The notes under the pieces: generated by a model | What the model was told of the DNA's origin: nothing | Database searches by the model: none | Seen by the model: the letters and a program-made list of their open reading frames with translations, nothing else | Part shown: positions 24,310 through 44,375 of the stretch, piece after piece | How positions within the stretch are numbered: the stretch's first letter is position 1 | How the letters are laid out: every line of letters begins with the position of its first letter | Virus record (IMG/VR): IMGVR_UViG_2851955134_000009 | Length of the DNA stretch: 64,000 nucleotides | From: a virus | Lineage: Duplodnaviria; Heunggongvirae; Uroviricota; Caudoviricetes | Reading direction: 5' to 3' (one strand) | Translations under genes and position numbers: made by a program

Positions 24310-24310
24310 C

Positions 24311-26735: not shown

Positions 26736-26949
26736 TTTGCTGTCCCGCGTTATGTTGTCGGAGACAGTTTGTGAGAAATGCGGGCCCGGCGATTTTAATC
26801 TGCTTTAGAAAACATCAGGGGAGAAGGACAGGGAAAGCAATGTGGTGAACCGGAGGCAGTTATAAAACAGAGGCTGTAAAGCCTTTATAAAGGTAATACA
26901 GCCCCTCATTCGCTGGCAATGATAAATCACCCGCCTGAAGAGAGAAAAC

Positions 26950-27408: not shown

Positions 27409-27410
27409 TG

Positions 27411-28259
27411 TTATCCTCTCAGTTCCTGTTGTGCCAGTGGCTGAAGCGTACCCTGATAGCGGGCCAGGTCGGGACGGTATGCTGCCCCCGGTGCATAAGA
27501 CCAGCCGACGTCGGTGGTCACCTTCGTGGTGCCGGTATTAAAGGTGGCCACGTTCCACATTTCGCCGGTTTTCTCTGAGACCAGTTTCAGTTCCTGGCCC
27601 ATGGCAGAGCCGGAGCTGATAACCTTCAGGCCACGGGCACGTACATCCGCCGCACTCAGGGCAATCACACTACAGCGGCAGCGCCAGCCGTTCGGCGGGT
27701 AAAATGCCTGCCAGAACGGGTCATCCCAGCGCAGCACCAGACCATGCAGCGCCAGATGGCTCCTGCGGGTATGGCTGTCGTTGATGCCGGTATACATCCA
27801 GTACGGCCTGTCGTCGACGTTTTCCATCTGCTCCGCCCAACGACCGGCGCTGTAGAGTACGGACATATTGGTGCGAAAGATGGTATCGAGCCGCCACGGA
27901 CTGCCCTGCTGAATGGTGACCGGCTCACCCGTTACCGGGTCAGTCGTGTCACGCGGTCCCCACCATCCCCTGCGCTTCAGCGCCGGCTCCAGCTCCTGCC
28001 GGAACCAGCGATCGGTTTTTCCTTCATCAACAGCCTGCTGCAGTGTCCCGCGAATATCTTCCAGAATATCCAGGCGGGTCACTTTAGCGACGGTAAAGGC
28101 GCGGGCATGGGCGTCCTGCCACATTTCTTCCTGGTCCCAGGTAATCTGATACCCTTTGGACTTCAGGTAGCTGACTGCCCGCTTCGGGGGAAGCGTCATG
28201 CAGTACGCCAGTTCAGCCGTTGTCACGCTCATGCAGCTGCCCCCAGATATTTGCCACAA
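27411..28259 (-). CDS. minor head protein (Mu gpF-like)
   Basis: 282 aa directly after the portal gene. Confidence 0.65.
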   Translation of the reverse strand: MWQISGGSCMSVTTAELAYCMTLPPKRAVSYLKSKGYQITWDQEEMWQDAHARAFTVAKVTRLDILEDIRGTLQQAVDEGKTDRWFRQELEPALKRRGWWGPRDTTDPVTGEPVTIQQGSPWRLDTIFRTNMSVLYSAGRWAEQMENVDDRPYWMYTGINDSHTRRSHLALHGLVLRWDDPFWQAFYPPNGWRCRCSVIALSAADVRARGLKVISSGSAMGQELKLVSEKTGEMWNVATFNTGTTKVTTDVGWSYAPGAAYRPDLARYQGTLQPLAQQELRG

Positions 28260-29709
28260 AGAGAATACGGGCCAGCCGCTCCTGCAGATCGTCCGTGTTC
28301 ATCTGAGGGTAGAGCTCCGCCAGTTCGCCCAGCAGCTCAGTCGGGTTAACCCCGTTTTCGACCCGTCTGAACAGAGGTGCCAGGACGGGTTCCAGCGTGC
28401 CATTTAACACACCTCCGTTCATCAGAATGTCCAGCGCGTCGTCAAGCTGCTGCTGAGCCTGAATATCGGCATCAATCGCCTCGGCAAATGACAGCGGCAG
28501 CATGTTCTTCTCGCATTCTGACGGTGGTGTCTCGTCAATATCGCCGTCCTGCAGCTGGTACTCACGCTTGAAGTATTGCGGGGTCAGACGCAGACCCGCC
28601 CGGGTGAGTTTTTCATCGCGGGTGGCACGGGTGTCATCAATGGCCTCCTGTTCCCACATGGCCCAGACCGGACACGGCACATCGCCGAAGTTCAGGGTGA
28701 CCACCGTTCTTATGACCTGATTCACTGCCGCCTGAATGATGTCCGCATCCGCATCGCGGATATCAGCCGTCACCTCCAGCCCGGCCTGTGCAGAGGCCTT
28801 GTTACTGTTCGCTTCCGTGGTCTGATTCTGACCGAGTAATGCAATGGAGATCTCACTGCGTGACAGTGTGATCAGCTCGCGGAATACCTCGCTGCTGTCC
28901 GCCTTGCCATCCGCTGCTTTGAGTTCGATGCTGCTGTCATCAGGGATGGCGGCCACCGCGTCCTCCACCATCTGCTCCATGGAGTCCAGCAGTTTTTCAA
29001 TCTCTGCATCATTTGCACCCCTCGGGTGCTTACCGATGACCCAGGGGGAGCCAAACTTTTCGGCAAAGCGGAGCCAGAATTTCATCCCGCCTTTCTTGAA
29101 GGCGACCGGCCAGAAGCACATGGACAGGTCCGGGAAACCGTAAGGATTGTCATACGAGGCATCCTGTGCCGGCACCACGAATTTTGACGGTGACAGCAGC
29201 TCACCCTCCACACCCGCATCACGAGCCCGGAAGCGCAGGCAGTTGTCCGTATCAAACTGAAACCACTCAGGCGGTTTGCCGACAATATCCGTCACCGCCC
29301 ACGCCCTGACCGAACGGCCCCACATGATTTCACAGGGCTGATACCCGTAGAGCACGGCATCGCTCATCTCACCGATGATGCGGGACAGATCCAGATCGTC
29401 GAGCATGTCGCGGATGAAACGGAAGACCCGGGCAGAAGCGTGACCGCGCTCCAGTCCACGTTCCAGCGATTTGACCGCTGCTTTACGTCTGCGGATACAG
29501 CCCCCGACCAGCGGGTCGGTGCGCAGTTCGCGGTAGATACGGATATCCCGTCCCTGAGCCTTGAGAATGGGATCAGGGTTGGGCAGGTACATTCCCAGAG
29601 CGTAAAAGTCGATGGCGCGGCTGCGGGAGGCAATCTGCGCGGTCAGTGACTTTTTGGGTTCGGCAAACGCCACGAACTCATCGGGTGAAACCCAGATACC
29701 TTTTGCCAT
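28213..29709 (-). CDS. portal protein (Mu gp29-like)
   Basis: 498 aa immediately after the terminase large subunit gene. Confidence 0.7.
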   Translation of the reverse strand: MAKGIWVSPDEFVAFAEPKKSLTAQIASRSRAIDFYALGMYLPNPDPILKAQGRDIRIYRELRTDPLVGGCIRRRKAAVKSLERGLERGHASARVFRFIRDMLDDLDLSRIIGEMSDAVLYGYQPCEIMWGRSVRAWAVTDIVGKPPEWFQFDTDNCLRFRARDAGVEGELLSPSKFVVPAQDASYDNPYGFPDLSMCFWPVAFKKGGMKFWLRFAEKFGSPWVIGKHPRGANDAEIEKLLDSMEQMVEDAVAAIPDDSSIELKAADGKADSSEVFRELITLSRSEISIALLGQNQTTEANSNKASAQAGLEVTADIRDADADIIQAAVNQVIRTVVTLNFGDVPCPVWAMWEQEAIDDTRATRDEKLTRAGLRLTPQYFKREYQLQDGDIDETPPSECEKNMLPLSFAEAIDADIQAQQQLDDALDILMNGGVLNGTLEPVLAPLFRRVENGVNPTELLGELAELYPQMNTDDLQERLARILFVANIWGQLHERDNG

Positions 29710-31232
29710 CAGAATCCCTCCAGCATACGGGCCGCCTGACGACGACGTCGTGAGCTTGCCTTCACCGGCCCTTTGTTAATTTCACGGCTGGCGAAATACG
29801 CCAGCGCCAGTGCGATGGCTGAATCCCCGTGGCGTTTACCACCATCAGCCTTTGCTTTTGAGCGTTGTTCCGGCACGCGGGGGACACCGTTCACCACCTG
29901 AACGGCCCGCAGGTCATCCAGTGTGTCTTCATCTTTTGGTAAGTCCAGCAGGTTACCGTCTTCCAGTGCAGCTTTGACCGGAGGCATATGCTCCCGGTAC
30001 CAGCCTTCGGTTGGCATCACCTGCTGAACCCGGCTGGAGCCGTAGCGCTGCATGGCGTATTCAGCCAGATAGGCACCATTACCACGGGCATCAAATGCTG
30101 CACCCAGCAGACCGGGCAGGCCATCCATCAGATACCAGGTGATTTGCTCCTGCTGTCTGAACGGCACGTTACGCAGCTCCAGTACGAATGGCACGCGTCG
30201 TACCAGGTTCTTCTCCTGCAGCAGGGGATAGTCCACCGACAAATCACCGCTGCGACCAAAGTCGCGCCCCAGGAAAGAGCGGGCATCAGTGGGGAGTGCC
30301 TCCAGCAAGGGTTTCAGATGCTCATCAAGCCAGTCCTGTGTCTCGTGGAAGCGAACCTCATCAGACAGCAGTTCATAACCTTCCTTGCAGGTCAGACGCA
30401 ATACTGGCGTATCAGCGGACATTCGGGACTCTATCAGGGCACGGGACAGCCAGGCACCGCCACCGTTGGCCGGAATACAGTCAAGCTCTTCGGATGCGCC
30501 GGCACCGTAGAATTTGTACACCGACGCCATCCAGGCCAGCTCGGATGCCTCCGACCATTCCTTCCCGGTGCGCAGACAAACGCGCTGGAACAGCCCCTCA
30601 GATACGGCTTCCCGGAAAGTGATGCGATGTACGCTGCCTCCCTGACGTCCGGCACGGATATCTCCGATAAGCGTACTGAATGGATTGTCGTCACCGTCAT
30701 GGGTGGAGATAACGCGTACCTTGCCCCCCCAGATAAGCATCGCCAGCGCCGCTTTCAGCAGTTCGTCCAGTTGCTCATGGAACGCCGCTTCGTCGATAAC
30801 AATAATACCCTGACGGCCACGCAGGTTAGACGGGCGGCTGGAGAGCGCGACAATGCGAAAGCCGGAGTCAGGAAATTTGATGGTGTAAGTCCTGATGTGT
30901 TTGTCGTCGTCGTCCTCTTCCCAGAATCCTTCTTCAATTTCACTGGCCGCATAGTTGAATGCCCGTGCCCACATCGCACACGCCTGAATGTATTCGACGG
31001 TCATGTCCTGGTTATAAGCGATGTAATACACATTCATCCCGCCTGCTGGCGCAGAAGAGGCGGCGGTCAGTACGTTATCGGATGCCTCAGCCCATGTAAT
31101 ACCGGTACGACGGCTCTTTTCTATCACCTTAAGCGGAGAGGCATCTGCCACCCAGCGCTGCTGGTAGGGCAACAGAACGGGAGGGGCATCATAACCGGAA
31201 GTGTCTGGTATTACCGGCGTGAACTGGCTCAT
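29709..31232 (-). CDS. terminase large subunit
   Basis: 507 aa; Walker A-like region near the N-terminus; followed by the portal gene. Confidence 0.75.
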   Translation of the reverse strand: MSQFTPVIPDTSGYDAPPVLLPYQQRWVADASPLKVIEKSRRTGITWAEASDNVLTAASSAPAGGMNVYYIAYNQDMTVEYIQACAMWARAFNYAASEIEEGFWEEDDDDKHIRTYTIKFPDSGFRIVALSSRPSNLRGRQGIIVIDEAAFHEQLDELLKAALAMLIWGGKVRVISTHDGDDNPFSTLIGDIRAGRQGGSVHRITFREAVSEGLFQRVCLRTGKEWSEASELAWMASVYKFYGAGASEELDCIPANGGGAWLSRALIESRMSADTPVLRLTCKEGYELLSDEVRFHETQDWLDEHLKPLLEALPTDARSFLGRDFGRSGDLSVDYPLLQEKNLVRRVPFVLELRNVPFRQQEQITWYLMDGLPGLLGAAFDARGNGAYLAEYAMQRYGSSRVQQVMPTEGWYREHMPPVKAALEDGNLLDLPKDEDTLDDLRAVQVVNGVPRVPEQRSKAKADGGKRHGDSAIALALAYFASREINKGPVKASSRRRRQAARMLEGF

Positions 31233-31777
31233 GTGGCAATCCCCAGAATCTCGCGACGAAGTGCCTGTACTGCGTCGCTTGACAATCCGCCCTTACGGGC
31301 AATTTTCTCGGCCGCATTCGCTGCAAGTTCTGCTTTTTCCTTGACCTCACTCTGAAAACGCTTGAGATTGACAGAGGCGCGGGTCAGGGTCGCAATATTG
31401 CGGGAAGCGGTGGCCAGCAATTTCGCCCGATCAGTCGGATCATTCTCGTCACTGACTTGTTGCAGACGCATCAGGATGTCGATCATCTCCGTCTGGATCA
31501 ACGTCATCAGTCCCGCAGAACGGTCATCCGCATCATCCCCCGCTTCACGAGCCATCAGCCTGGCTGCTTCAGTTGCCGCACGAACACGGGCCAGTTGCTG
31601 CTCCATTTTGTAGCCGAACCGCTGCAGGGAGGAGCGGGTTATCACATATCCCCTCTCTTTTAACAAACTTTCAAGTTCAGCATAGCCGGTGAAATTATTC
31701 TCCGTCAGCGCCCGCTCCAGCCAGCGGCGGACATCCGTCGGCAGAGAATCAATGCTGCTGCGACGTCCCATAATCAC
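31229..31777 (-). CDS. putative terminase small subunit
   Basis: 182 aa directly upstream of the large subunit with a 4-nt overlap. Confidence 0.5.
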   Translation of the reverse strand: MIMGRRSSIDSLPTDVRRWLERALTENNFTGYAELESLLKERGYVITRSSLQRFGYKMEQQLARVRAATEAARLMAREAGDDADDRSAGLMTLIQTEMIDILMRLQQVSDENDPTDRAKLLATASRNIATLTRASVNLKRFQSEVKEKAELAANAAEKIARKGGLSSDAVQALRREILGIAT

Positions 31778-32085
31778 TCACTCCAGTATTTTTCCGGTCG
31801 GGCAATACCCGGGCCGCATTCCACGGTGTATTCCACAATATCCACACCAAGGCGACTCAGATCGGCAAACCAGTCACCGGACGGTCTCTTCTCCAGCTCC
31901 ACCATTTTGCGATCTGCCAGATAATCAAGCTCCCGGCGCAGCTCCAGTTGCGTGGTGTCCGGGTAGATGGCGCGGGACACGTCCAGCAGCAGCGTCTCGC
32001 TGGCGGTGTAAGGGCGGGTTTTGTTCAGGGCAACCAGCAGACTCCAGCGCAGGGATTCACGGCGTACCCGGGTAATATCGACCAT
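31774..32085 (-). CDS. hypothetical protein
   Basis: 103-aa ORF in the late operon between lysis and terminase genes. Confidence 0.35.
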   Translation of the reverse strand: MVDITRVRRESLRWSLLVALNKTRPYTASETLLLDVSRAIYPDTTQLELRRELDYLADRKMVELEKRPSGDWFADLSRLGVDIVEYTVECGPGIARPEKYWSE

Positions 32086-32411
32086 TATTGACCTCCGGTA
32101 TTGCGGTACTGCTGTACCACTTCCAGTTTGTTGTAAAGCGCGTCCAGTTTGGCCTCGATGACTGTCTGGCCACGGATATAATCCTCGCGACGGACATAAT
32201 TCAGCGGTAAATCCGCTTTAAATCGCATAAATTCTTTTTCCAGCTCGCCCCAGTTGGATGCAGACTGTTGCAGGGCCTGTTCAAGAGAGGCGAATCGTGC
32301 CGCCTGGCGTTCTTCTGTTTTACTGAACAACCATTTGGCGAGCCCTCCCACAAACCCCATGAAGGTGAGCAAAAAACTCACCACCGTCCAGAATTCAACC
32401 TGCAGTGTCAT
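32085..32411 (-). CDS. small membrane protein
   Basis: 108 aa with an N-terminal TM segment (VVSFLLTFMGFVGGLA). Confidence 0.35.
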   Translation of the reverse strand: MTLQVEFWTVVSFLLTFMGFVGGLAKWLFSKTEERQAARFASLEQALQQSASNWGELEKEFMRFKADLPLNYVRREDYIRGQTVIEAKLDALYNKLEVVQQYRNTGGQ

Positions 32412-33058
32412 TTCTGTAATCCTTCCCGTTCATCCAGTAGCGCGTTTATCTGGTTCCGCCAGCGACGACATTGCCCTGCGTTGTCGATGATGTTGGCGAG
32501 AACGTCACGCTGGGAGACGCCTGAGTCGCGTAGCCAGGCGTCAGCGGTTTCAGGTTGCCCGGTCGCTGTGCCAGAGCGGGTGCCAGTGGCGGCAACTGAG
32601 TCTGAATGACCGCTGTCGACGGATGCGTTGTCATATCCGAGTGCGGCGTTGTACTGGCGCACGAAACCGCGAGTAAACACGCACTCAATGGGATGGCTCT
32701 TACCTTTTTCATCAATCCAGCGCTGTGTGACATCGTTAATTTGCCCCTGTAGTTGTTTATTCCGGCTCTCCAGTTGAGCAATCTGCTCAAGGTAACTGGC
32801 TTCAGCCTGCTGCCCGGCGGCCACCTGCTCCTGATACCGTTTTGCCCAGGCCCGCAACGCAGCGTTCTCAAGCGTTGCCTGCTCCGTTTTGTATTTGTCG
32901 AATGCTGACTGCAACTGACTGAGCGCGGTATTACCGTCACGCTTTGCAGAGTCATGACCACTGCTGTATCCCATGGCATACAGGCCGACCAGAAAGGCAT
33001 TGATAAGAATGGCCAGCAGAATGCCGCGCCACGGCAGCTTTTTAACCAGATGCCACAC
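32408..33058 (-). CDS. putative i-spanin
   Basis: Proposed GTG start at 33058 with a GAGG RBS; N-terminal TM segment followed by a coiled-coil-rich region; a lipoprotein ORF is embedded in another frame. Confidence 0.45.
   Translation of the reverse strand: MWHLVKKLPWRGILLAILINAFLVGLYAMGYSSGHDSAKRDGNTALSQLQSAFDKYKTEQATLENAALRAWAKRYQEQVAAGQQAEASYLEQIAQLESRNKQLQGQINDVTQRWIDEKGKSHPIECVFTRGFVRQYNAALGYDNASVDSGHSDSVAATGTRSGTATGQPETADAWLRDSGVSQRDVLANIIDNAGQCRRWRNQINALLDEREGLQK
32446..32712 (-). CDS. putative o-spanin (embedded lipoprotein)
   Basis: MKKVRAIPLSACLLAVSCAS signal/lipobox-like N-terminus, Pro-rich, fully embedded in the i-spanin gene. Confidence 0.4.
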   Translation of the reverse strand: MKKVRAIPLSACLLAVSCASTTPHSDMTTHPSTAVIQTQLPPLAPALAQRPGNLKPLTPGYATQASPSVTFSPTSSTTQGNVVAGGTR

Positions 33059-33782
33059 AACTGCTGCCTCCCCATGTGAGATATCGCGGTGCCAGCTCGC
33101 GCAGGATGCGTTGTGGATAATGGCGGTTCTCCCGCCAGCTGGCAGCATTGCGTCCGGCATTCACCGTGGCGACATGTCCGAACCAGCGCTGACTGTCCAG
33201 CCCCAGATATGCGGCGAGCCGCTGGTCACGGCGCACCCAGCCCGGGCCACCGTTATAGCCCGACAGTGTCATGGCCATACGCTCGCAGTCGCTGGCGGCA
33301 CTGATGCGCTGCCACAGCCAGCGGTCATAACTGACCAGCGCCCGGATAGCCCATGCCGGATTAAACGGCTCTCGACTGCTCAGCGCCGGCATCAACTGGC
33401 TTATCCAGTCGGCAGTGGCAGGCATAAACTGCGCCAGTCCCTGAGCCCCCACCGGCGAGATCGCATCAGGTCGCCAGCCGCTTTCCTGATGCAGTTGCGC
33501 AGCGAAATCAGCCACCGGCGCAGACAGTCCCCATTCAAGCCGGGCATTACGGATCACATCATCGCGATACTGCAGGGCAGCCCGCGGGGGCTGTGCTGCG
33601 GATGCCTGACTGAAAAAGCCACCACACCAGAGCAACATTGCGACAAAGAATACCCATGCCATATGAACCAGAAAGGTCCCGGCGCGGACTGACAGGCGTT
33701 CGGTTCTGATGAAGACCCGAAAGGCTTCGAAAGCCAGTTTCAGGGACATGCATACAATCCAGGTGATCTGCGGCCAGTTCAT
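33042..33782 (-). CDS. endolysin, lytic transglycosylase-like with N-terminal membrane anchor
   Basis: 246 aa with a hydrophobic N-terminus; sits between holin-like and spanin genes at the start of the late operon. Confidence 0.55.
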   Translation of the reverse strand: MNWPQITWIVCMSLKLAFEAFRVFIRTERLSVRAGTFLVHMAWVFFVAMLLWCGGFFSQASAAQPPRAALQYRDDVIRNARLEWGLSAPVADFAAQLHQESGWRPDAISPVGAQGLAQFMPATADWISQLMPALSSREPFNPAWAIRALVSYDRWLWQRISAASDCERMAMTLSGYNGGPGWVRRDQRLAAYLGLDSQRWFGHVATVNAGRNAASWRENRHYPQRILRELAPRYLTWGGSSCVASG

Positions 33783-33784
33783 GA

Positions 33785-34135
33785 TTAAAGCCCCATCGCA
33801 ACAGCCAGACAGACAGCTGCAACAATCAGTGCACGACGAAGCAGGGCGGCAGCAAACACCAGATGAAGCCCGGTCTGTACGGGCCAGCGCCCCTCAGCCA
33901 TGAGGCGCTCGTCATGCTTCAGGTACTGCCCCGGGCGGGCCTTCGGGAAGAGCGAGCGGTCCAGCCAGTAGCCGAGAACGGAGGCGAGGGAGATGAGAGA
34001 GAGCTTGTACACCACCACCGGCAGCTGCTGGGGCGAGACCAGCGCGATGATGAGGAGCAGCAGTACGGCGGCAACAAGCCAGCCACGCAGGCGGGTTTTT
34101 TGTACGTCTGCGATAAGGGAGGTGAGTTTTTTCAT
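33785..34135 (-). CDS. putative holin/membrane protein
   Basis: 116 aa with two to three TM segments; first gene of the leftward late operon. Confidence 0.45.
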   Translation of the reverse strand: MKKLTSLIADVQKTRLRGWLVAAVLLLLIIALVSPQQLPVVVYKLSLISLASVLGYWLDRSLFPKARPGQYLKHDERLMAEGRWPVQTGLHLVFAAALLRRALIVAAVCLAVAMGL

Positions 34136-34267
34136 AAAGATGTCTCCTTGTGTAGTGGAGACAGCATCACAAATACGGGGCGCGAAGGATTTTAAAGCGC
34201 GTTAAGAGAGCCGGGGATACGGGATGCGCAGAATAAACGATGAATTATTCACAGAGGAGAATACGAT

Positions 34268-35011
34268 ATGACGCACACACTGAATCCGGTCATCACTGTC
34301 ACTGTGTCCGGTCCTGTGGGCAGCGGTAAAAGTTACGTACTGGCGCGGATAGAAGAGATGGTGAAACAGGAACTCGGAAACAGCGTCATTGTCGATGCTG
34401 CTGACGTGGAGAATGAGCGCCGTATGAGTGGCGATGATCTGACGACCTGGCAGAAGCCACGGGCTGGCACAGTGATCAGGCTGGAGGAATACACGGGACA
34501 GGGCCTGTTGTCATACGGCGAGGAGCGTATCTGTCGGACGAATGAGCTGCTGGATGTTATATGCCCCGCGGGCCGGCAACCCTGGATACTGCCCGATGCA
34601 CTGCATGCCACCATTGCGGCACTGATGACAGTTTACGATCAGGAACTGCTCATGAAGGAGTTACGTAAACTCACCGGTCAGCCAACAGAATGTTTTTCGG
34701 CCCCGAAGTACGGGAAGCAGGAACACATCCCGGTGAACACAATCCCCGTTAACCAGCCTCCCCGGTTCTTCGACGAATACATTCTGACACCGGAAAATAA
34801 AGCTGAGCATGAAGAGATCAAAGAGGCGTTGTTCCGGGAAATCAGGAAGATTGCTGAAATGCAACTGGGGGGCGGGCTGGACAGAGTGATGGCGAGAGGA
34901 GAATGGGAGTCGCTGTTTGAAAGAGTTTCCCCGGAATTACTGCCCCTCGCACTGGCTATCGGGATTATGCAGACAGCAGATAAACCTCACTTACGTTCAT
35001 CAAACACGTAG
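34268..35011 (+). CDS. P-loop NTPase/kinase-like protein of unknown function
   Basis: Walker A motif GPVGSGKS near the N-terminus, followed by VIVDAAD; no further recognisable domain. Confidence 0.4.
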   Translation: MTHTLNPVITVTVSGPVGSGKSYVLARIEEMVKQELGNSVIVDAADVENERRMSGDDLTTWQKPRAGTVIRLEEYTGQGLLSYGEERICRTNELLDVICPAGRQPWILPDALHATIAALMTVYDQELLMKELRKLTGQPTECFSAPKYGKQEHIPVNTIPVNQPPRFFDEYILTPENKAEHEEIKEALFREIRKIAEMQLGGGLDRVMARGEWESLFERVSPELLPLALAIGIMQTADKPHLRSSNT

Positions 35012-35064
35012 CGCAGAATATTTTGCCGGTGAGTACATAAAAATCATCATTTAAGGAGTGCATC

Positions 35065-35280
35065 ATGAATCCCCGATTAACGTTAACAGAACATCAGCGC
35101 CGTGCTGAAGCAGTGAACAATGTTCTGGAAGATATTATCCGGTTACATCGCGGAGAACTGAGTGTCTGTCGTGCCGCTTTTCATTTTCAGGGAATACAAA
35201 AGCAGTTTGATACTTCTGTTTTTGCAGAAGGTATTACTTATGCCCTGGACCGGATAAGGTCAGAAAATCGCCCCGGATAA
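35065..35280 (+). CDS. hypothetical small protein
   Basis: 71-aa ORF with an RBS-like AAGGAG upstream, between the P-loop gene and the methyltransferase. Confidence 0.3.
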   Translation: MNPRLTLTEHQRRAEAVNNVLEDIIRLHRGELSVCRAAFHFQGIQKQFDTSVFAEGITYALDRIRSENRPG

Positions 35281-35471
35281 TCCCTAAACCACATTAACAG
35301 AAATCCCACTATCCCTGCCGCATCATGAAAGAACGACCAGCCCGGTGCTTCGGACCCACCGGGCTGGCCATCGTCCCACAGAAGTGGCTGTGAGCCGACC
35401 GAGGTTCAGTCAGTCTCGCGAGACCAGACTAGCCTGCCATATTTTTAATAATTGTAAAAGGCTTACAGATT

Positions 35472-36236
35472 ATGAAAATGCAGACATTACCCATCGTTCC
35501 ATGGATTGGTGGCAAACGCCGCCTTGCAAAACACATTCTGCCGCTGTTTCCGGCGCATGAATGTTATGTGGAGCCGTTTTGTGGGGCAGCAGCGCTCTAT
35601 TTTCTTAAGACACCCGGCAAGATCGAAGTCATCAATGATATCAACGGTGAACTGGTGAATCTGTACCGGGTGGTAAAGCATCACCTGGAAGAATTTGTCC
35701 GCCAGTTCAAATGGGCGCTGGTCAGCCGTCAGATCTACAAATGGCTGCAGATCACCCCGGAAGAAACACTGACGGATATCCAGCGTGCGGCACGGTTCTA
35801 CTACCTTCAGAAGCAGGCGTTTGGCGGCAAGGTGGCAGAGCACAGCTTCGGTACCTCCACCACATCCCCGCCACGCTTCAACCTGCTGCGTATTGAAGAA
35901 GAACTGTCAGCGGCACACCTGCGGCTTTCCAGAACAGTCATAGAACACATGGACTGGCAACAGTGCATTGAGCGTTATGATCGTCCGCACACGCTGTTCT
36001 ACTGCGACCCACCGTACCTGGGTACGGAAGGCTATGGTGTGGATTTTCCTGAAGGGAACTACTCGCGGCTGGCAGAGCTGGCCCGGTGCATCAGAGGAAA
36101 AATGATAATTTCGGTGAACGACATCCCGCAGATGCGCGAGGTGTTCACTGGACTGAACATACAGACAGTGAATATCAACTACAGTCTGGCGGGTAAATCC
36201 ACGCCGCGCCGTGAACTGCTAATCTGCAACTTCTGA
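35472..36236 (+). CDS. DNA N6-adenine methyltransferase (Dam/D12 class)
   Basis: AdoMet-binding motif EPFCGAAALYF near the N-terminus and catalytic DPPY motif; 254 aa. Confidence 0.8.
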   Translation: MKMQTLPIVPWIGGKRRLAKHILPLFPAHECYVEPFCGAAALYFLKTPGKIEVINDINGELVNLYRVVKHHLEEFVRQFKWALVSRQIYKWLQITPEETLTDIQRAARFYYLQKQAFGGKVAEHSFGTSTTSPPRFNLLRIEEELSAAHLRLSRTVIEHMDWQQCIERYDRPHTLFYCDPPYLGTEGYGVDFPEGNYSRLAELARCIRGKMIISVNDIPQMREVFTGLNIQTVNINYSLAGKSTPRRELLICNF

Positions 36237-36247
36237 AACAAAACCGG

Positions 36248-36270
36248 AAAGCACAATGCTTTCCGGTAAA
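36248..36270. terminator. hairpin downstream of the methyltransferase gene
   Basis: ccggaaagc/gctttccgg inverted repeat, located between convergent genes. Confidence 0.35.
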
Positions 36271-36352
36271 CCAAACAACTTCCACTATGTCACTGGCGAT
36301 GTTTTCTGAAATCATCCAGATCAACCACCTGTCTTTTGTGTCCGGGTCAGTA

Positions 36353-36700
36353 TCAGCCTGCGATTTTTCCTGGTTTTGGCTGAGTATAGAAGCGCCCAAC
36401 CTCAAGAAATGAGCGTCGTTGCTCCGGAGTCATTTCATCAAATGCGTCCATTAATTTCTGTTTGTCTGGTGACATTTTTGGGATAGCGTTGGTAGTTGCA
36501 TCCCCTCTCTGTCCCGTAACAACGTAAAGCACGTCAAGCCCCAAAGTAGCCCAAATTGCCAAAGCATCTGCTCCGGGAGCGGATTCATCCTTTTCCCACC
36601 GCAATTGGCTTTTATAGGATGCCCCCACCAATTCAGCAAACTCAGACTGACTAAATCCTAGGCGGTTTCGTTCTTCTTTTAATCGTGAACCAAGTGACAT
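36353..36700 (-). CDS. HTH (XRE-type) repressor, Mu c-like position
   Basis: N-terminal HTH (LKEERNRLGFSQSEFAELVG); divergently transcribed from the Ner-like gene. Confidence 0.6.
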   Translation of the reverse strand: MSLGSRLKEERNRLGFSQSEFAELVGASYKSQLRWEKDESAPGADALAIWATLGLDVLYVVTGQRGDATTNAIPKMSPDKQKLMDAFDEMTPEQRRSFLEVGRFYTQPKPGKIAG

Positions 36701-36793
36701 TTTTGTCCCAATATCTATTTACATATCCCATTATTGGGATAATAATCTAACAAATATAAAGCAAACATCATTGCACTAAACAAGGAGACAACA
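36701..36793. promoter_or_regulatory. divergent early control region with operator-like inverted repeat
   Basis: Intergenic region between repressor and Ner-like genes; contains atccca-ttat-tgggat (36725-36740) plus a related half-site upstream. Confidence 0.3.
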
Positions 36794-36982
36794 ATGACTG
36801 CAGACCAGGTCAAAGCTCATTTCCGTCGCAATGGGATCACTTTTACCCAGTGGGCAAAACAGAACAACTACACCAGAGCGGAGGTTTACCGCGTACTGAA
36901 TGGCCAGGTAAAAGCGAACTACGGCAAAGCCCATGAAATCGCTGTCAAGCTGGGATTAAAAACCATCACTGACGCCGCTTAA
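36794..36982 (+). CDS. Ner-like DNA-binding protein
   Basis: 62 aa; the segment GKAHEIAVKLGL resembles the Ner/Nlp family; first gene of the rightward early operon. Confidence 0.6.
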   Translation: MTADQVKAHFRRNGITFTQWAKQNNYTRAEVYRVLNGQVKANYGKAHEIAVKLGLKTITDAA

Positions 36983-37035
36983 AAAGATACAGCATACGAA
37001 AAAGATTATCACATATTGAAAAAAGAGGTGTGCAG

Positions 37036-37344
37036 ATGAGTAAGACGAATGTTTCAAGCTCCGGCAGTCGCATCCTCCGGGTACTAAAAGCGCTGCGTGG
37101 TCATGCTCTGAACGGTATTTCCAACGGTGAACTGGCAGCAGCACTGCACGAGTCACCGGCGAACATCAACCGGGCACTCAACACCCTCATTGAAGAAGGG
37201 CTGGCTCTGAAACTGGAGAACGGACGTTTCGCACCGGGCATTCAGTTGCTGCAGATCGCCATGGCCCACAGTAACGAGATGGCACGTGCACAGGATCGTA
37301 TTAACGAAATTAACCAACGTGTTATTTCAGGAAGTCGTTTGTAA
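37036..37344 (+). CDS. putative winged-helix transcriptional regulator
   Basis: About 100 aa; HTH-like segment (ISNGELAAALHESPANINRALNTLIEEGL). Confidence 0.35.
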   Translation: MSKTNVSSSGSRILRVLKALRGHALNGISNGELAAALHESPANINRALNTLIEEGLALKLENGRFAPGIQLLQIAMAHSNEMARAQDRINEINQRVISGSRL

Positions 37345-37354
37345 GGAGTAATCA

Positions 37355-38272
37355 ATGGGACGCACCAAATCACCGGTTAGCACTGAACTGAACGTCGAGG
37401 TACCGCTGTCGGATGATCTCAATGTCAGTCTGAACGCCATGACACAGCATCGCATGGAAATCATGCAACAGTTCGGCGATGGTCTGCCCTATGAGCGCGA
37501 TCGTGTTGTCCATGAGGCACGCTTTTATATGGCACAGAGCGCTGAGGCCATGCTGGAGGCAGGTAAACGGCTAATAATCCTTAAGGAAAATGAACCACAC
37601 GGGGAGTTTATAAAGATTCTTGAAAGTGAGTTGGGGCTGGCATACCGGACATCTGTGAGAATGATGCAGGCATCGACAAAATACTTATCCCCGGCGCTGA
37701 AACCAAATGTGCCAACGTTGGCACATTTGGGAAAAGCCAAACTTTTCGAATTAATGACAGAAGACGACGAAGAGCTTGCCGAACTGGCCGACGGCGGTAC
37801 GGTTGCCGGCCTGACGCTTGACGATGTTGATCGCATGTCAGTACGTGAACTTCGTCAGGCCCTGCGCGAAGCGCGCGAAACCAATGCAGCACAACAGCGT
37901 GTTCTAGCCGACAAAAATGAAAAAATCGACTCACTCTCCACCAGGCTGGAGAAAAAATCCCGTATTCAACCGCCTGAGCCTGATGAAGAGGTGAAGAAGC
38001 TGCGGGCGGAAGTGACCGCATTAGCGGTTGAGGCGGAATCTGCCATCGCCGTCCGGCTCTCCGGTGCCTTTGAAACCCTGTGTGAATACTGCAGTAAAAA
38101 CATGATTGATACCCCCAGAGATTTCATGGCCGGTCTGGTCTGCCAGATTGAACGCAGTGTTCATGCATTGCGTGAGACGTTCGACCTTGATGCCGCACCA
38201 TCGGGTAACGATGTCCCCGCATGGCTGACCGAACCGGAGCCTGAAATCAACCGACCGGAGGGCATGCGTTAA
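37355..38272 (+). CDS. hypothetical protein (early region)
   Basis: 305-aa ORF with a coiled-coil central region, between Ner-like and transposase genes. Confidence 0.35.
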   Translation: MGRTKSPVSTELNVEVPLSDDLNVSLNAMTQHRMEIMQQFGDGLPYERDRVVHEARFYMAQSAEAMLEAGKRLIILKENEPHGEFIKILESELGLAYRTSVRMMQASTKYLSPALKPNVPTLAHLGKAKLFELMTEDDEELAELADGGTVAGLTLDDVDRMSVRELRQALREARETNAAQQRVLADKNEKIDSLSTRLEKKSRIQPPEPDEEVKKLRAEVTALAVEAESAIAVRLSGAFETLCEYCSKNMIDTPRDFMAGLVCQIERSVHALRETFDLDAAPSGNDVPAWLTEPEPEINRPEGMR

Positions 38273-38589
38273 TGAACACGAATAATACACAAAATATCCT
38301 GATGGACAGCCCGGAAGCACTGGGGCACGCACTGTGTAATCTGCTGCCGGAGATGGTGCAGGGTTTCCGCGTGGTGACACCTTCCGGTGAAATCTGCGTA
38401 CCCGCACAGGAGGCGCATCCGTTTGTACTGACGATGGAAGTGATGCTGATGCAGCAGATAAGACGTCTGCAGCATCAGTCAGCATTGCGCCCGGCAGTTG
38501 CGCCGCAACCGGTAAATAACGTGGTGAAAACCTGCGATGGCGAAACCCTGCGCGACCGTGCCAGAAAAATTGCCGCCAGAATCGGATAA
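38272..38589 (+). CDS. hypothetical protein
   Basis: 105-aa ORF whose start overlaps the upstream stop. Confidence 0.3.
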   Translation: MNTNNTQNILMDSPEALGHALCNLLPEMVQGFRVVTPSGEICVPAQEAHPFVLTMEVMLMQQIRRLQHQSALRPAVAPQPVNNVVKTCDGETLRDRARKIAARIG

Positions 38590-38604
38590 CAGGGAAGACA
38601 AGCT

Positions 38605-40374
38605 ATGACCCCGGCACTGACTGAAAAACTTGTTGAAACAGCCCGCGCGGCACGTAATGCGGGGCATGGTAAACGCGGTGCAATATACGACGCTGCCTGT
38701 GCTGAACTTGGCATGTCCCGCGCCACTCTGCTGCGCAGGCTGAAGGAGGTCTCTGTGACTGATAAACGCAAAAAACGCGCCGATGCCGGACGCAGCACCC
38801 TGACCCGCGACGAAGCCGCGCTGATATCTGCCACACTACGTGAGGCCACCCGCAAGAACGGTAAGCGTCTCTATTCCATCGCGGATGCAGTGGAAACCCT
38901 GCGGGCTAACGGCTTTATCTCCGCAGGCAGAACAGATGAAACCACCGGTGAGTTTTTCCCGTTGTCCGAAGATGCCATCAGTCGTGCCCTGCGTAACTAT
39001 GGCCTGCACCCGGAACAACTGGATGCCCCTGCACCGCATACCGAAGTGGCCAGTCTGCACCCCAATCATGTCTGGCAGATTGACGCCTCACTCTGCACGC
39101 TTTACTACCTGAGCAATGGACATAAAGGGCTGCAGGTGATGGACAGCGCGAAATTCTACAAAAACAAGCCCGCTAACCTTGCCCGTATCGCCAGTGACCG
39201 CGTGTGGAGTTACGAGATTACCGACCATGCCAGCGGCTGGATTTACGTTGAGTATGTGACGGGTGCGGAATCCGGTGAGAACCTGTGTTCTGTGCTTATC
39301 AACGCCATGCAGGAGCGTGGCGGCGCAGACGTGCTGCACGGCGTGCCAAAAATACTCTATCTCGACCCCGGCTCGGCAAACACCGCGGGTATGACGAAAA
39401 ACATGTGCCGCTCACTGGGCATCGACCTGATAGCGCACAAGCCGCATAACGCCCGCGCCACCGGACAGGTGGAAAAGGCGCGTGACATTATCGAACGCAA
39501 GCTGGAGCCGGGTCTGAAGTTCCGGCCGGTTCACAGTCTGGAAGAACTCAACGCGCTGGCCGCGAAATGGCGCAGCCACTTTAACGCCACGGCTGTTCAC
39601 AGCCGCCACGGTAAAACCCGCACGGATATCTGGCTGAAGATTACTGCTGAGCAGCTGAAAAAAGCGCCTTCCGTTGAGGTATGTCGTGAACTGGCTGTGG
39701 CGGCACCAGAACTCCGCAAAGTCACGCCAAAACTTCGTGTCTCGTTCCGGGGCACTGAATTTGACGTATCAACGGTACCGGGCGTACTGGTCGGTGAAAA
39801 ACTGATGATTACCCGTAACCCGTGGCGCAGCGATGTGGCACAGGTGGTTCTGACCGGTGAGGACGGCCACGAGACGTTCTTCCTGGTCGAAGAGGTCAGA
39901 AAGAACGAGTTTGGCTTTGCTGAAGGCGCGGCGGTATTTGGCGAAAGTTACAAAGCCCTGCCGGAAACCCCGGCGCAGATGGCGGCAAAAGAAACCGAAG
40001 CGCTGGTCACCGGTACAGACAACGCCGCAGATGCAGCTGCCGCACGCAAGGCGAAGGCGCTGCCGTTCGGCGGGCGGCTTGACCCGTATAAACATATTGA
40101 TGACGCCACACTTCCGGCCTGTATACCGAAGCGTGGTCAGGCCTCTGACGTACGCGGACCGCGCACTGAACAGCGTCCCATGACTCATGTGGAGGCCGCG
40201 AAAGCCCTGCGCGGGAAGTTTAGCGCAAACGGCCTGACCTGGACGCCGGAACATTACCGCCAGTTAACAGCACAGTACCCGGACGGCGTACCGGAAGCCG
40301 CACTGGATGAAGTCATGGCCACGCTGACCACGCCGGCCCGCAGCAGCGTTATCAGCATTGTTAACGGCAACTGA
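38605..40374 (+). CDS. DDE transposase (MuA-like)
   Basis: 589 aa; rve-type catalytic core with candidate DDE residues (WQIDAS, YLDPGSANT, downstream E); followed by a MuB-like ATPase. Confidence 0.75.
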   Translation: MTPALTEKLVETARAARNAGHGKRGAIYDAACAELGMSRATLLRRLKEVSVTDKRKKRADAGRSTLTRDEAALISATLREATRKNGKRLYSIADAVETLRANGFISAGRTDETTGEFFPLSEDAISRALRNYGLHPEQLDAPAPHTEVASLHPNHVWQIDASLCTLYYLSNGHKGLQVMDSAKFYKNKPANLARIASDRVWSYEITDHASGWIYVEYVTGAESGENLCSVLINAMQERGGADVLHGVPKILYLDPGSANTAGMTKNMCRSLGIDLIAHKPHNARATGQVEKARDIIERKLEPGLKFRPVHSLEELNALAAKWRSHFNATAVHSRHGKTRTDIWLKITAEQLKKAPSVEVCRELAVAAPELRKVTPKLRVSFRGTEFDVSTVPGVLVGEKLMITRNPWRSDVAQVVLTGEDGHETFFLVEEVRKNEFGFAEGAAVFGESYKALPETPAQMAAKETEALVTGTDNAADAAAARKAKALPFGGRLDPYKHIDDATLPACIPKRGQASDVRGPRTEQRPMTHVEAAKALRGKFSANGLTWTPEHYRQLTAQYPDGVPEAALDEVMATLTTPARSSVISIVNGN

Positions 40375-40384
40375 GGAGGGAAAC

Positions 40385-41551
40385 ATGCTGGTACTGAAGC
40401 AGCAACTGAAAGAGGCCCGTATTCCACAGGCGGTGGCGGCGAGAGCTGTCGATGTTTCTGAGGCCACGCTGGCCCAGATTGTGAATCATAACGCGTGGCC
40501 CCGCACCAGCCCCGGAGAAGTGCGCCGGCGTCTTGCGTCCTGGCTGGAAAGTCAGGGGATTGATACAACGAAGAGTTTTGATGCTGTACAGGGCGCGGCC
40601 ACGCCCCGTACAGCGGGTACCACAGATAAAACGAGCCTCAGTGAGGAAGAGAATATGTTACTCAAAAAACAGGTGTTATTTCCAGCAACCAAAAAAGCGT
40701 TTGGTCTTTTCCGTGACCCGTTCGCCGATGAAGCCATGCAGGGTTCTGATGATGTGTTCACCACCCCGGACATTCGCTACGTGCGTGAGGCGCTGTACCA
40801 GACAGCCCGTCATGGTGGGTTTATGGCCGTCATCGGTGAGTCCGGTGCGGGTAAATCCACGCTGCGCCGCGACCTGACTGAACGTATTAACCGCGAGAAT
40901 GCGCCGGTAATTGTTATCGAGCCATACATCATCGCTATGGAAGACAACGATGTGAAAGGGAAAACCCTGAAGGCAGCAGCTATTGCCGAAGCCATTATCA
41001 GTACCATCGCACCACTGGAAAGCATCAGACGCAGTCAGGACGCCCGCTTTCGCCAGTTGCATCGCGTCCTGAAAGACAGCAGCCAGGCGGGGTTCAGCCA
41101 CGTTCTGGTGATTGAGGAGGCCCACAGTCTGCCCATTCCGACACTGAAACACCTCAAACGCTTTTTTGAGCTGGAGTCCGGTTTCAAAAAACTGCTGTCC
41201 ATCGTGCTGATTGGCCAGCCGGAACTGGCGACAAAACTGTCTGAACGCAATATGGAAGTCCGTGAAGTCGTTCAGCGCTGTGAGGTGGTCGAACTTCTGC
41301 CTCTGGACAATAACCTTGAAGAATTTCTGACGTTCAAACTGCAACGGGCCGGTAAACAACTGACGGACATTATGGACGCCAGCGCAGTGGATGCCATACG
41401 TGCCCGCCTGAGCAATCCGGGAAGTCATCGTAAAAATATGGTCAGCCTGCTGTATCCGCTGGCCGTCAGTAACCTGGTAATAGCCGCCATGAATCTGGCC
41501 GCTGAAATCGGGGTTCCACAGGTCAACGCTGACGTTGTCAAAGGAGTTTAA
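40385..41551 (+). CDS. transposition ATPase (MuB/TniB-like AAA+)
   Basis: Walker A GESGAGKST, Walker B-like HVLVIEEAH; immediately downstream of the transposase. Confidence 0.65.
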   Translation: MLVLKQQLKEARIPQAVAARAVDVSEATLAQIVNHNAWPRTSPGEVRRRLASWLESQGIDTTKSFDAVQGAATPRTAGTTDKTSLSEEENMLLKKQVLFPATKKAFGLFRDPFADEAMQGSDDVFTTPDIRYVREALYQTARHGGFMAVIGESGAGKSTLRRDLTERINRENAPVIVIEPYIIAMEDNDVKGKTLKAAAIAEAIISTIAPLESIRRSQDARFRQLHRVLKDSSQAGFSHVLVIEEAHSLPIPTLKHLKRFFELESGFKKLLSIVLIGQPELATKLSERNMEVREVVQRCEVVELLPLDNNLEEFLTFKLQRAGKQLTDIMDASAVDAIRARLSNPGSHRKNMVSLLYPLAVSNLVIAAMNLAAEIGVPQVNADVVKGV

Positions 41552-41553
41552 TA

Positions 41554-41823
41554 ATGAAATCCACCACAGGTATCAACCAGCAAATCAGCAAAGTGCAGTC
41601 AGCCATTATGGCGCTTAAGGCGACGAACACGGATGTACAAAGCATCACCATCAGGGGTAACAAACCTGTCATCCGCGTTTCCCGGAGTGCGCATTGCATG
41701 CGCATGCTTGAGCAGGGAAAGGCCTGTTATCTGTATACCGGACATGACCACAGGGGATATTTCCGTCAGGGCGTTTTCGAACTGCACGGCTGTCGCGTCG
41801 TGTGGCCGGAATCTTTGTGGTAA
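41554..41823 (+). CDS. hypothetical protein
   Basis: 89-aa ORF directly after the ATPase gene. Confidence 0.3.
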   Translation: MKSTTGINQQISKVQSAIMALKATNTDVQSITIRGNKPVIRVSRSAHCMRMLEQGKACYLYTGHDHRGYFRQGVFELHGCRVVWPESLW

Positions 41824-41850
41824 TCAGCACAACCGGAGAAATCATAAAAT

Positions 41851-42381
41851 ATGGCAAAAAGTACAAAAGGGGCAAAACGTATCAAGGCCGCAGCGGCACT
41901 CTGGGTACCAGGGACACGCGAAGAGGTCATTGAGGGAATCAGACTACTCGGTGACGCACAACGTGAACTGGTCAGGGCTGAAACAGAAATGAATGACGCC
42001 ATTGGCGATATCACCGCACGTTATGCCCCGCTCACCGAGAGCCTGAAAAAACGCATGGCCGAACTGCAGTCCGGTATCCAGACATGGTGTGAGGCGCACC
42101 GTGATGAACTGACCGGCAACGGGAAGGTGAAGTTCGCTAACCTTACCACCGGCGAGGTGCAGTGGCGAAACCGTCCGCCATCAGTCAGTATCCGTGGGGC
42201 GGATAATGTTATTGAATTACTGAGACGTCTGGGGCTTGAGCGCTTTATTCGTGTAAAAGAGGAAATAAATAAAGACGCTATCCTGAATGAAAAAGAGGCC
42301 GTGAAAAATATTCCCGGTATTTCCATTAAAAGCGACATTGAGGATTTTTCAATAATTCCTTTTGAGCAGGATGTGCAGTAA
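41851..42381 (+). CDS. Gam-like host-nuclease inhibitor protein
   Basis: 176 aa; position after the B-like gene as in Mu. Confidence 0.5.
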   Translation: MAKSTKGAKRIKAAAALWVPGTREEVIEGIRLLGDAQRELVRAETEMNDAIGDITARYAPLTESLKKRMAELQSGIQTWCEAHRDELTGNGKVKFANLTTGEVQWRNRPPSVSIRGADNVIELLRRLGLERFIRVKEEINKDAILNEKEAVKNIPGISIKSDIEDFSIIPFEQDVQ

Positions 42382-42478
42382 ACACACCACGTTAATTATT
42401 TAATAAAAACATTTTCTTTTTTATTCCGGCGTCAGCGCCGCGGGCTTCTGCACGCCGGAAACAGAGGAGAATTAAATC

Positions 42479-42673
42479 ATGATATTTAAATGTATTCAGT
42501 GCGAGAGGGATATAACAGCCCTGCGTTTTCACAGCGCCATCGCCGTGATGTCCGGTAAATACCACATCCCTGCGGTACGCGTCACCCTGGTCTGCCCGTA
42601 CTGCAGCCAGCATTTTTCGGCGGACGTGCCCGTCATGGAATTCTCCCGCCCTGACAGGGAGGACGCGCAATGA
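42479..42673 (+). CDS. zinc-ribbon small protein
   Basis: 64 aa with CIQC...CPYC. Confidence 0.3.
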   Translation: MIFKCIQCERDITALRFHSAIAVMSGKYHIPAVRVTLVCPYCSQHFSADVPVMEFSRPDREDAQ

Positions 42674-42942
42674 TTACCCCACAGGAAGCACGACAGCGCA
42701 CCCGAACCCTTGTTGAACACTATGTCAACGAGTGTGAATGCCGCAACCTCACCGATGTGAAGCACGTCCTGACGGCACTAATCAGTATGGCCGCTCAGGC
42801 CATTGTGGCAACCAACGGAAAGGCGGCTGCCCTGCAGGTACTGGTGAACACACTCACCCACACGGCAGAGCATGAGGTGCCGTACCGGATGGAAACCACT
42901 GCAGAAGGCGGCCTGCACATCACCGTCAGCCGGAAGCACTGA
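42670..42942 (+). CDS. hypothetical protein
   Basis: 90-aa ORF in an operon-like run with overlapping start/stop codons. Confidence 0.3.
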   Translation: MITPQEARQRTRTLVEHYVNECECRNLTDVKHVLTALISMAAQAIVATNGKAAALQVLVNTLTHTAEHEVPYRMETTAEGGLHITVSRKH

Positions 42943-42951
42943 GGGCGCGGC

Positions 42952-43248
42952 ATGACACGGAACACCATACTCACCCGCACCGCCCTCTACCGTCTGGCCC
43001 TGCAGCGTTTCGGGCCGGACGCACAGGCCCTGAAACTGACAGAAGAGGCCGCTGAACTGGCGGCCAGTGCTGCCCGCAATCTGAACGGACAGGGCAGCGA
43101 AAGTGACCTCGCGGCAGAGCTGGCAGACGTGGAAATCATGACAGAGCAATTGCGCCTTCAGGGAATGGACCGGCTGATTGACTTCCACAAACAGAAAAAA
43201 CTGGAACGTCTGGCTGCACGACTGGGCGTGATTTACACGAACGAGTAA
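42952..43248 (+). CDS. hypothetical protein
   Basis: 98-aa ORF, early region. Confidence 0.3.
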   Translation: MTRNTILTRTALYRLALQRFGPDAQALKLTEEAAELAASAARNLNGQGSESDLAAELADVEIMTEQLRLQGMDRLIDFHKQKKLERLAARLGVIYTNE

Positions 43249-43262
43249 CCGGGAGGCATTCA

Positions 43263-43478
43263 ATGGCTGACATACTCAGGGAAATCACCGCATGGACACT
43301 GATTCTTACTGGCCTGGCGACATGCCTCAGTGCGGGAGCAGCCCTGGCTGCCCTGCTGATGCACATAACAACACAGTGGTTATGGGAAAAGCTTAAAGCA
43401 GCATACAGCCTGAAAGAGCTGTCCGACGCTGTCCGGGCATGGAAACGGCAGAAAAATACCGGAGATACAGAACAATGA
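43263..43478 (+). CDS. small membrane protein
   Basis: 71 aa with one TM segment (ITAWTLILTGLATCLSAGAALAALLM). Confidence 0.3.
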   Translation: MADILREITAWTLILTGLATCLSAGAALAALLMHITTQWLWEKLKAAYSLKELSDAVRAWKRQKNTGDTEQ

Positions 43479-44158: not shown

Positions 44159-44375
44159 TTACGTTATCAGGTAACAGCCGGAAATTAAAAGCCTGCCGAA
44201 TATCTCCCAGATACCTTTTTGCCCGCGCCTTTTTTAAGAACGTCAGGCCGGGGATCACAATTGGTGTTATTGCCGGACGCGAACAGGTTGAAAAATACAT
44301 GTCAGGTGCATGGTGGAATAAAGACCCTGTCATTGCTGCCCGTAATATTCATATCAGTTGGGGGGATATTCAGAA

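Follow-up and report, generated by a model that had tools for sequence, protein, structure and literature searches.

The DNA considered here is a 64,000-nucleotide stretch from a tailed virus (Caudoviricetes; IMG/VR record IMGVR_UViG_2851955134_000009), which we call the window, and the region under study, positions 34136–36793, is the control and accessory center of a transposable prophage that lies within it. The prophage occupies 8916–46510 of the window (37,595 bp), looks intact, has the termini TG...CA and is of the kind represented by phage BcepMu. We consider it, with a probability of about 0.88, to be an intact-looking member of a common Enterobacterales branch of BcepMu-type phages, equipped with a Gin-type tail-fiber switch whose cassette is an ancestral and standard possession of the branch. 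A preliminary description of this DNA had proposed an element with divergent early and late arms about a central control region and a Mu-style invertase cassette at the late end. Its coordinates for the arms were right, while its limits for the element as a whole, 10106–45402, fell short of the ends given above.

The two arms coincide exactly with open reading frame (ORF) boundaries, from 34135 down to 10106 on the left and from 36794 to 45402 on the right. The late arm is an unbroken run of minus-strand genes from the holin gene (33785–34135) down to a fiber chaperone gene (10106–10720), and the early arm is an unbroken plus-strand run from a small gene at 36794–36982 to a Mor-family gene at 45004–45402. 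GC skew and AT skew both switch sign at 34–36 kb. Whole-genome comparison with Mu, BcepMu and enterobacterial relatives confirmed that this architecture is of the BcepMu type. In tblastn searches, 36 of 50 proteins matched BcepMu in the same order and orientation at 31–76% identity, among them the transposase (68% to gp09 over 581 amino acids), its AAA+ partner (59% to gp08), the sheath (76%), the tube (67%), gpI (63%) and TerL (62%). The tail module corresponds to gp39–gp51 of BcepMu over the same range of identities. The matches to Mu were confined to the invertase (76%), Gam (62%), TerL (49%), F (48%), GemA, Mor, the portal, G and a short fiber repeat. The transposase and the ATPase had no tblastn match in Mu (E value of 1e-3), nor had the tail proteins, and Mu was not among the 69 phage records matched by the transposase. 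Neither a MuA-type transposase with MuB nor the Muvirus layout (a left-end repressor, near-unidirectional genes and a Mu-type tail with L, M, N, P and others) is seen. The divergent arms and the P2-like tail, both of which had been noted earlier, are features of the BcepMu family, as judged from the BcepMu map and the tblastn results. Prophages of Salmonella, Photorhabdus and Chromobacterium have been recognized as members of that family since 2004 (PMC3417384).

At the nucleotide level, megablast with stretches of 16 kb and 24 kb from the element matched phages PhiKM, KP12 and Phi06_2974 B, the last also among the closest phage records, and did not match BcepMu or phiE255. The element is thus probably a phage of the BcepMu kind but of a different genus, and its strict membership in Bcepmuvirus would seem doubtful from these sequences; GenBank places PhiKM in Bcepmuvirus. 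The record of Klebsiella phage KP12_2 (OM835952), although it too is a BcepMu-type element, is filed under Vequintavirinae.

The center opens on the left with a divergent intergenic region of 132 bp (34136–34267) which, given its position, would be expected to hold a leftward Mor-dependent late promoter and a rightward promoter for the cargo genes. The cargo genes, all on the plus strand, are one of phrog_3787 (34268–35011, 247 amino acids), one of phrog_4490 (35065–35280, 71 amino acids) and a gene for a Dam-family N6-adenine methylase (35472–36236, 254 amino acids). A longer methylase frame, 35345–36236, modeled on the 285-amino-acid annotation of PhiKM, was discarded: it contains stops, and the 254-amino-acid frame agrees with the annotation of a related copy in Escherichia coli Ec1117 by the Prokaryotic Genome Annotation Pipeline (PGAP). 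The methylase gene converges on a leftward gene for a CI/Xre-type repressor (36353–36700, minus strand, 115 amino acids), with a terminator-like hairpin between them (36243–36267, minus strand). The repressor has an HTH_3 domain, falls in repressor PHROGs and is 37% identical to BcepMu gp17. Next comes a region of 93 bp (36701–36793), the putative operator and promoter region of the immunity switch, with a promoter-like TTTACA-17-AATAAT at 36718–36746 that is overlapped by the palindrome TATCCCAnnnnTGGGATA. The first early gene (36794–36982, plus strand, 62 amino acids) follows directly and specifies a helix-turn-helix protein of the BcepMu_gp16 family (TIGR04111 score of 95.5 bits, where the cut-off is 34; 49% identity to BcepMu gp16). 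Of the central repressor and Ner-like genes proposed earlier, the repressor is borne out; the other gene stands just outside the flagged range and is an analogue of Ner by position and size, with no homology to Ner detected.

The center is also the most variable part of the element. Compared with the Ec1117 copy, identity falls to 92–93%, with gaps, over 34399–36741, and the first cargo gene specifies 247 amino acids in the window versus 182 in Ec1117. The cargo genes differ among E. coli relatives; the block 34268–36236 is not found in BcepMu, and the methylase is the only gene of it shared with KP12_2. The repressor and gp16-like pair of KP12_2 is unrelated to the pair in the window, so KP12_2 is heteroimmune. 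Such variability is the usual behavior of immunity and accessory regions. A further cargo gene of unassigned function, of phrog_12870, lies near the early end (45517–46149, plus strand). A defense or anti-defense role was considered for the cargo genes and dropped, since those at 34268–35011, 35065–35280 and 45517–46149 had no match in PADLOC or NCBIfam.

Gene order, read together with the biology of Mu and BcepMu, suggests how the center might work. The CI-type repressor would probably act on the 93-bp switch region and close the early promoter there. Upon its loss the rightward early operon would come on, providing the gp16-family analogue of Cro or Ner, the DDE transposase, its AAA+ partner, Gam and GemA. 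The Mor-family activator specified at the end of this operon would then turn on the leftward late operon by way of the late promoter, the holin gene first, followed by the lysis, Mu-like head and P2-like tail genes, down to the tail fiber.

The insert starts with TGATGCG and finishes with CTGATCA, and ATTATT flanks it on both sides (8910–8915 and 46511–46516); this target occurs once in phage Cartapus, which is uninterrupted here, and twice in the window. The left (late) end, 8916–8993, has two G(C/A)GATAAAT repeats at +13 and +36, and the right (early) end, 46411–46510, has two GAGATAAAT repeats, the mirror image of those on the left, at +14 and +37. The repeats are presumed to be binding sites for the transposase. 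The Ec1117 copy, which is 97–98.5% identical and sits between glpQ and inaA, has a 6-bp duplication of its own, GCTAGT (439–444 and 38170–38175 of the Ec1117 extract). The duplication is thus 6 bp in two independent insertions, versus 5 bp in Mu. A 5-bp duplication as in Mu had been entertained and was rejected, because the sequence and the Ec1117 copy give 6 bp and a start at 8916. Further copies are found in yhfW (strain PK8275) and beside kbl (F1022), yaaU (MS1737 and MS1494) and aroA (EC958), so that the same element occupies at least five distinct chromosomal sites. With its TG...CA ends, its target duplications and its copies at differing sites, the element is, as far as sequence can tell, a mobile and randomly inserting transposable phage.

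The invertase cassette proposed at the late end is real and lies inside these ends. The invertase (8994–9566, minus strand, 190 amino acids) is a Gin-type serine recombinase with Resolvase and HTH_7 domains; it matches the solved Gin structures 3uj3 and 4m6f at an E value of about 1e-93, with the catalytic serine motif YIRVSTNDQ aligned, and shares 76% identity with Mu Gin. A distance of 78 bp separates its stop codon from the TG terminus of the element. Over its first 180 nucleotides the gene is 73–80% identical to Mu gin, with which it also has in common a Fis-consensus-like motif at +71. Two crossover sites of 26 bp stand in inverted orientation with the same TT core. The invertase-proximal site, GAGAGATAAACG-TT-GGTTTGGGGGAA, is at 9621–9646 (plus strand, core 9633–9634), and the other, TCCTCAATTACC-TT-GGTTTAGGAGAA, is within the fiber gene at 11224–11249 (minus strand, core 11236–11237). 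The sites resemble Mu gix, TTATCCAAAACC-TC-GGTTTACAGGAA, but the core differs.

Between the cores is an invertible segment of 1.6 kb (9635–11235), bordered by inverted repeats of 229 nucleotides that are 86% complementary. The segment contains a silent alternative fiber tip that is S'v-like and has a Collar domain (9638–10099, plus strand), a U/G-like fiber assembly chaperone of the Caudo_TAP family (10106–10720, minus strand), which is the sole chaperone there, and the expressed variable tip of the fiber. The fiber gene (10720–12489, minus strand) consists of a constant part (12489–11236) and this variable tip (11235–10720), and its product has Phage_fiber_2 repeats and a Collar domain; its last 172 codons and the chaperone gene fall inside the segment. 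The constant part has, over 11407–12255, tandem repeats of about 300 nucleotides (Phage_fiber_2 units) in strain-dependent number, which accounts for multi-piece BLAST matches and for differences in fiber length (587 versus 570 amino acids, and others). The label Mu-style, given to the cassette earlier, suits its layout and its invertase; it does not suit the fiber tips and the chaperone, which have no tblastn match in Mu, nor the presence of one chaperone.

The invertase flips the 1.6-kb segment and so exchanges the expressed tip for the silent one. Inversion in silico at the TT core fuses the constant part of the fiber in frame with the silent tip, and the flipped junction is found, at 100% identity from end to end, in E. 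coli PK8275 and PK8261, which have the same invertase and chaperone proteins, the chaperone gene being on the opposite strand. Two near-clonal isolates from chickens, MS1737 (4,787,760 bp) and MS1494 (4,787,756 bp), differ by a clean inversion of 1,608 bp at 99.94% identity, with the prophage at the same site; PKF11 and PKF4, both from kites, contrast in orientation in the same way. The fiber switch is therefore active within clonal lineages. The exchange of tips presumably alters host range.

Both the element and its cassette are widespread. The control and transposase region is present in 643 of 5,426 complete E. coli genomes (about 12%), and about 598 records have the 77-bp element end joined to the 3' end of the invertase gene at 95% identity or more. 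The identical cassette is found at the identical position in other E. coli strains. A species survey, for which one genome was taken per species with a gpI homologue together with 10-kb flanks, found 13 enterobacterial loci, some of them remnants, in which an invertase gene follows gpI at a distance of 1–4 kb: Pantoea stewartii, Erwinia tracheiphila, Ca. Erwinia dacicola, Pseudocitrobacter, Intestinirhabdus, Apirhabdus, two Xenorhabdus, Pectobacterium, Symbiopectobacterium (two loci), Sodalis and Limnobaculum eriocheiris. In the same survey there was no invertase by gpI in seven Photorhabdus species, Burkholderia, Chromobacterium, Pseudomonas or Pasteurellaceae. We regard the cassette as an ancestral and standard module of the enterobacterial branch and not a one-off addition to this copy. 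It was probably acquired once, after the enterobacterial branch had split from the members in Burkholderia, Chromobacterium and Photorhabdus.

It follows that the earlier portrayal of the element as a mosaic holds in one respect, in that a cassette has been added relative to BcepMu, and fails in another, since the same organization is the norm in the Enterobacterales branch and so is not distinctive. In substance, relatives with this organization have already been described, with the cassette as a standard part (about 600 E. coli records, KP12_2, the prophage of E. coli EC958 and the 13 loci). The lineage is indeed already known, as a common prophage that has been sequenced and annotated and whose invertase has been noticed before: in a Bcepmuvirus prophage of sequence type 131 (ST131) the DNA invertase was noted and rearrangements of the fiber were shown (bioRxiv 10.1101/2022.05.07.487787).

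Some observations weigh against the explanation favored here. The regulatory steps are drawn, for this copy, wholly from gene order and from Mu and BcepMu biology, and a sigma-70 scan of 34136–34267 gave no promoter match, although none would be expected if the promoter is activator-dependent. The PhiKM record is without an invertase, as is LR-31; some members of the lineage thus do without the cassette, which must be dispensable. Finally, in the flipped state the chaperone gene is antisense to late transcription, so that the second orientation may or may not yield a functional fiber.

The last point bears on an alternative that we regard as unlikely, namely that the cassette is decaying: a second chaperone would have been lost, only one orientation would be productive, and inversion would act as an on/off or bet-hedging switch of the fiber and no longer alternate two host ranges. 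A dedicated chaperone for each tip, as with U and U' in Mu, is not found. The segment has one Caudo_TAP gene, co-oriented with one tip only, and there are 6 bp between the stop codon of the silent tip and that of the chaperone gene; KP12_2 and EC958 likewise have a single chaperone. However, the alternative tip has an intact frame, a Collar domain, a conserved C-terminus and an in-frame fusion to the constant part, and the one-chaperone design has been kept across E. coli and Klebsiella, suggesting that it is functional. Chaperones might also come from co-resident prophages, or the second fiber might be independent of a chaperone.

Far less probable is a recent and copy-specific origin of the cassette, by recombination with Mu or with a P2-like prophage resident in the same window, which would make the element an unusual new mosaic. 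In favor of such an origin, BcepMu and phiE255 have no invertible segment, and the invertase resembles that of the P2-like prophage (77% identity) as much as that of Mu, the two cassettes in the window being homologous. At the nucleotide level, however, identity is only 64–75% to the resident P2-like cassette and 67% to Mu gin, too low for either to have been a recent donor. In addition, other E. coli strains have the same cassette in the same position, roughly 600 records have the junction of end and invertase, and the layout recurs in Klebsiella, Pantoea, Pectobacterium, Sodalis and others. A P2-like donor had been suggested by a 97.6% match of 8917–10162 to ‘Escherichia phage Entero_P88’, and was rejected because the record, PV468777, is a prophage prediction with wrong limits. 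Positions 24000–40277 of PV468777.1 (‘Escherichia phage Entero_P88_NC_026014(23)’) hold the chromosomal genes dmsABC, pflB, ycaO, serC and aroA, and then the BcepMu-type prophage of ST131 begins with its left end.

DNA searches against phage records showed that the window contains two prophages, one nested in the other, a circumstance overlooked in the preliminary description, as were the P2-type tail genes and the invertase cassette that the outer prophage has of its own. Positions 1440–8915 and 46511 to about 60400 belong to a P2-like (Peduoviridae) prophage with 96–99.8% identity to phages Cartapus and 500465-1. The flanking chromosome (ybjL, ybjM, grxA) matches E. coli at 100% identity. 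In Cartapus, GACATGATTATTGCGTG forms one unbroken stretch between lysB and R. The window has 37,595 bp of additional DNA at this point, after lysB (8411–8839) and before the tail-completion gene R (46500–46967), and the P2-like sequence breaks off and restarts exactly at the duplicated target. Among the 5,426 complete E. coli genomes there is not one with the nested junction. Since P2-like phages often carry fiber inversion cassettes and the one around the element has such a cassette (50942–53409), it could be supposed that the cassette at the late end belongs to this or another neighbor and merely abuts the late arm, but this is scarcely credible and indeed already refuted, for the cassette is inside the ends set by the target duplication, P2-like sequence restarts exactly at that duplication, and the cassette moves with the element to sites without an adjoining P2-like prophage (glpQ/inaA, yhfW, kbl, yaaU and aroA).

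The cassette of the P2-like prophage lies between its fiber and sheath genes. Two Gin-type cassettes stand 41 kb apart in this genome. The P2-like one has crossover sites at 50942–50953 and 52769–52780, with the same TT core as those of the transposable element and near-identical to them, two chaperone genes (51259–51699 and 51671–52273), a silent tip (52273–52815) and the invertase gene (52837–53409). Its tips and chaperones, like its invertase, are homologous to those of the transposable element, from which it differs in having two chaperones and in belonging to a non-transposing, integrase-type phage. Given that the sites are so alike and the invertases so similar, recombination among the four crossover sites is conceivable. 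It would swap fiber tips between unrelated phages or invert about 43 kb across the prophage boundary, and the translocation of a fiber segment reported for ST131 prophages would fit such cross-talk (bioRxiv 10.1101/2022.05.07.487787). The insertion, lying between lysB and R, probably also separates R and S from their operon promoter and may leave the P2-like prophage inactive, which would be a case of one prophage crippling another. That all of this applies together, with a flipped fiber that is chaperone-free or borrows its chaperone, cassettes that may cross-recombine and an insertion that may cripple the outer prophage, is a reading we hold with rather little confidence.

Inside the P2-like prophage, adjoining its portal gene, is a gene of low GC content (37%) at 52–1374 that is truncated by the start of the window. 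PADLOC matched it, at an E value of 4e-23, to LmuB, which is the SMC-like ATPase in Lamassu systems of defense against phages, over the C-terminal two-thirds of that protein; it also falls in phrog_1637. The site beside the portal gene of P2-like phages is a known hotspot for defense genes.

The remaining modules of the transposable element conform to the BcepMu-type assignment made above. The late arm opens with a lysis cassette (31774–34135, minus strand) comprising the holin gene, an SLT transglycosylase gene, an Rz-like gene and two small genes. It continues with a Mu-like head and packaging module (23399–31771, minus strand) of gp36/37-like, major head, protease/scaffold, G, F, portal, TerL and TerS genes, and with a P2-like tail module (12489–23158, minus strand) of I, J, W, V, D, X, U, tape measure, E, tube and sheath genes, whose names are taken from the PGAP annotation of the 98.5% identical Ec1117 copy. 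The early operon (37030–45402, plus strand) has a helix-turn-helix gene and a DUF3102 gene, then the transposition genes, and ends with Mor. All on the plus strand, it includes the DDE (rve) transposase (38605–40374), the AAA+ transposition ATPase (AAA_22; 40385–41551), Gam (41851–42381), GemA (44541–45032) and the Mor-family activator (45004–45402), which is 56% identical to BcepMu gp01. Gam, 62% identical to Mu Gam, had no match in BcepMu or KP12_2; it is the second module in common with Mu, besides the invertase. The domains recognized were rve, AAA_22, GemA, Mor, holin, HTH_3, BcepMu_gp16, Dam, Resolvase with HTH_7, Collar and Caudo_TAP.

These results put right how a very common prophage of E. 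coli is annotated, one that about one in eight complete genomes carry and that is typical of ST131: it is a BcepMu-type transposable phage with an active fiber switch, and the switch is a trait of the enterobacterial members as a branch, absent from the Burkholderia type phages. Since the segment flips between near-clonal isolates, it would be wrong to take differences that assemblies show within this 1.6-kb region for mutations or recombination events. The nested insertion is a clean, datable example of a phage family that is still transposing. The practical value of these points is modest, and no long-standing question is opened by them; only the nested context and the one-chaperone switch might repay follow-up.

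Among known systems, Mu offers the closest parallel to the cassette as such. In the G segment of Mu, as here, the constant part of the fiber, the invertible segment, the invertase gene and the end of the element follow one another in that order. The Mu segment, however, is 3 kb long and has both U and U', compared with 1.6 kb and one chaperone here, its crossover core is TC, and the com and mom genes of Mu are absent beyond the invertase gene of the window element.

For the rest of the element the parallel is with BcepMu (NC_005882) and phiE255, the type members of Bcepmuvirus, with which it shares a Tn552-like rve transposase with an adjacent AAA+ partner. As in BcepMu, an early gene of the gp16 family stands opposite a CI-type repressor gene, which is co-directional with the late genes. 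GemA and Mor close the early arm, and a holin/SLT/Rz cassette opens the late arm. A Mu-like head is combined with a P2-like tail in the order sheath-tube-E-T-U-X-D-V-W-J-I-H, and the ends are TG...CA. BcepMu differs in that it is without the Mu-like Gam, that the genes separating its repressor and holin are read the opposite way and are unrelated to those in the window, and that the corresponding end has an acyltransferase gene, gp53, with no invertase or invertible segment; its lack of an invertible G region has been reported before (PMC2628397).

The nearest relatives are of the same lineage and, unlike the window element, none of them is nested in a P2-like prophage. These are Escherichia phage PhiKM (PQ738613), at 94–96% DNA identity, Klebsiella phage KP12_2, at 84–86%, and the EC958/ST131 prophage beside aroA. 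The EC958 prophage has two silent tips versus the one found here, and both it and KP12_2 have, at the same end as the window element, an invertase, silent tip(s) and one chaperone.

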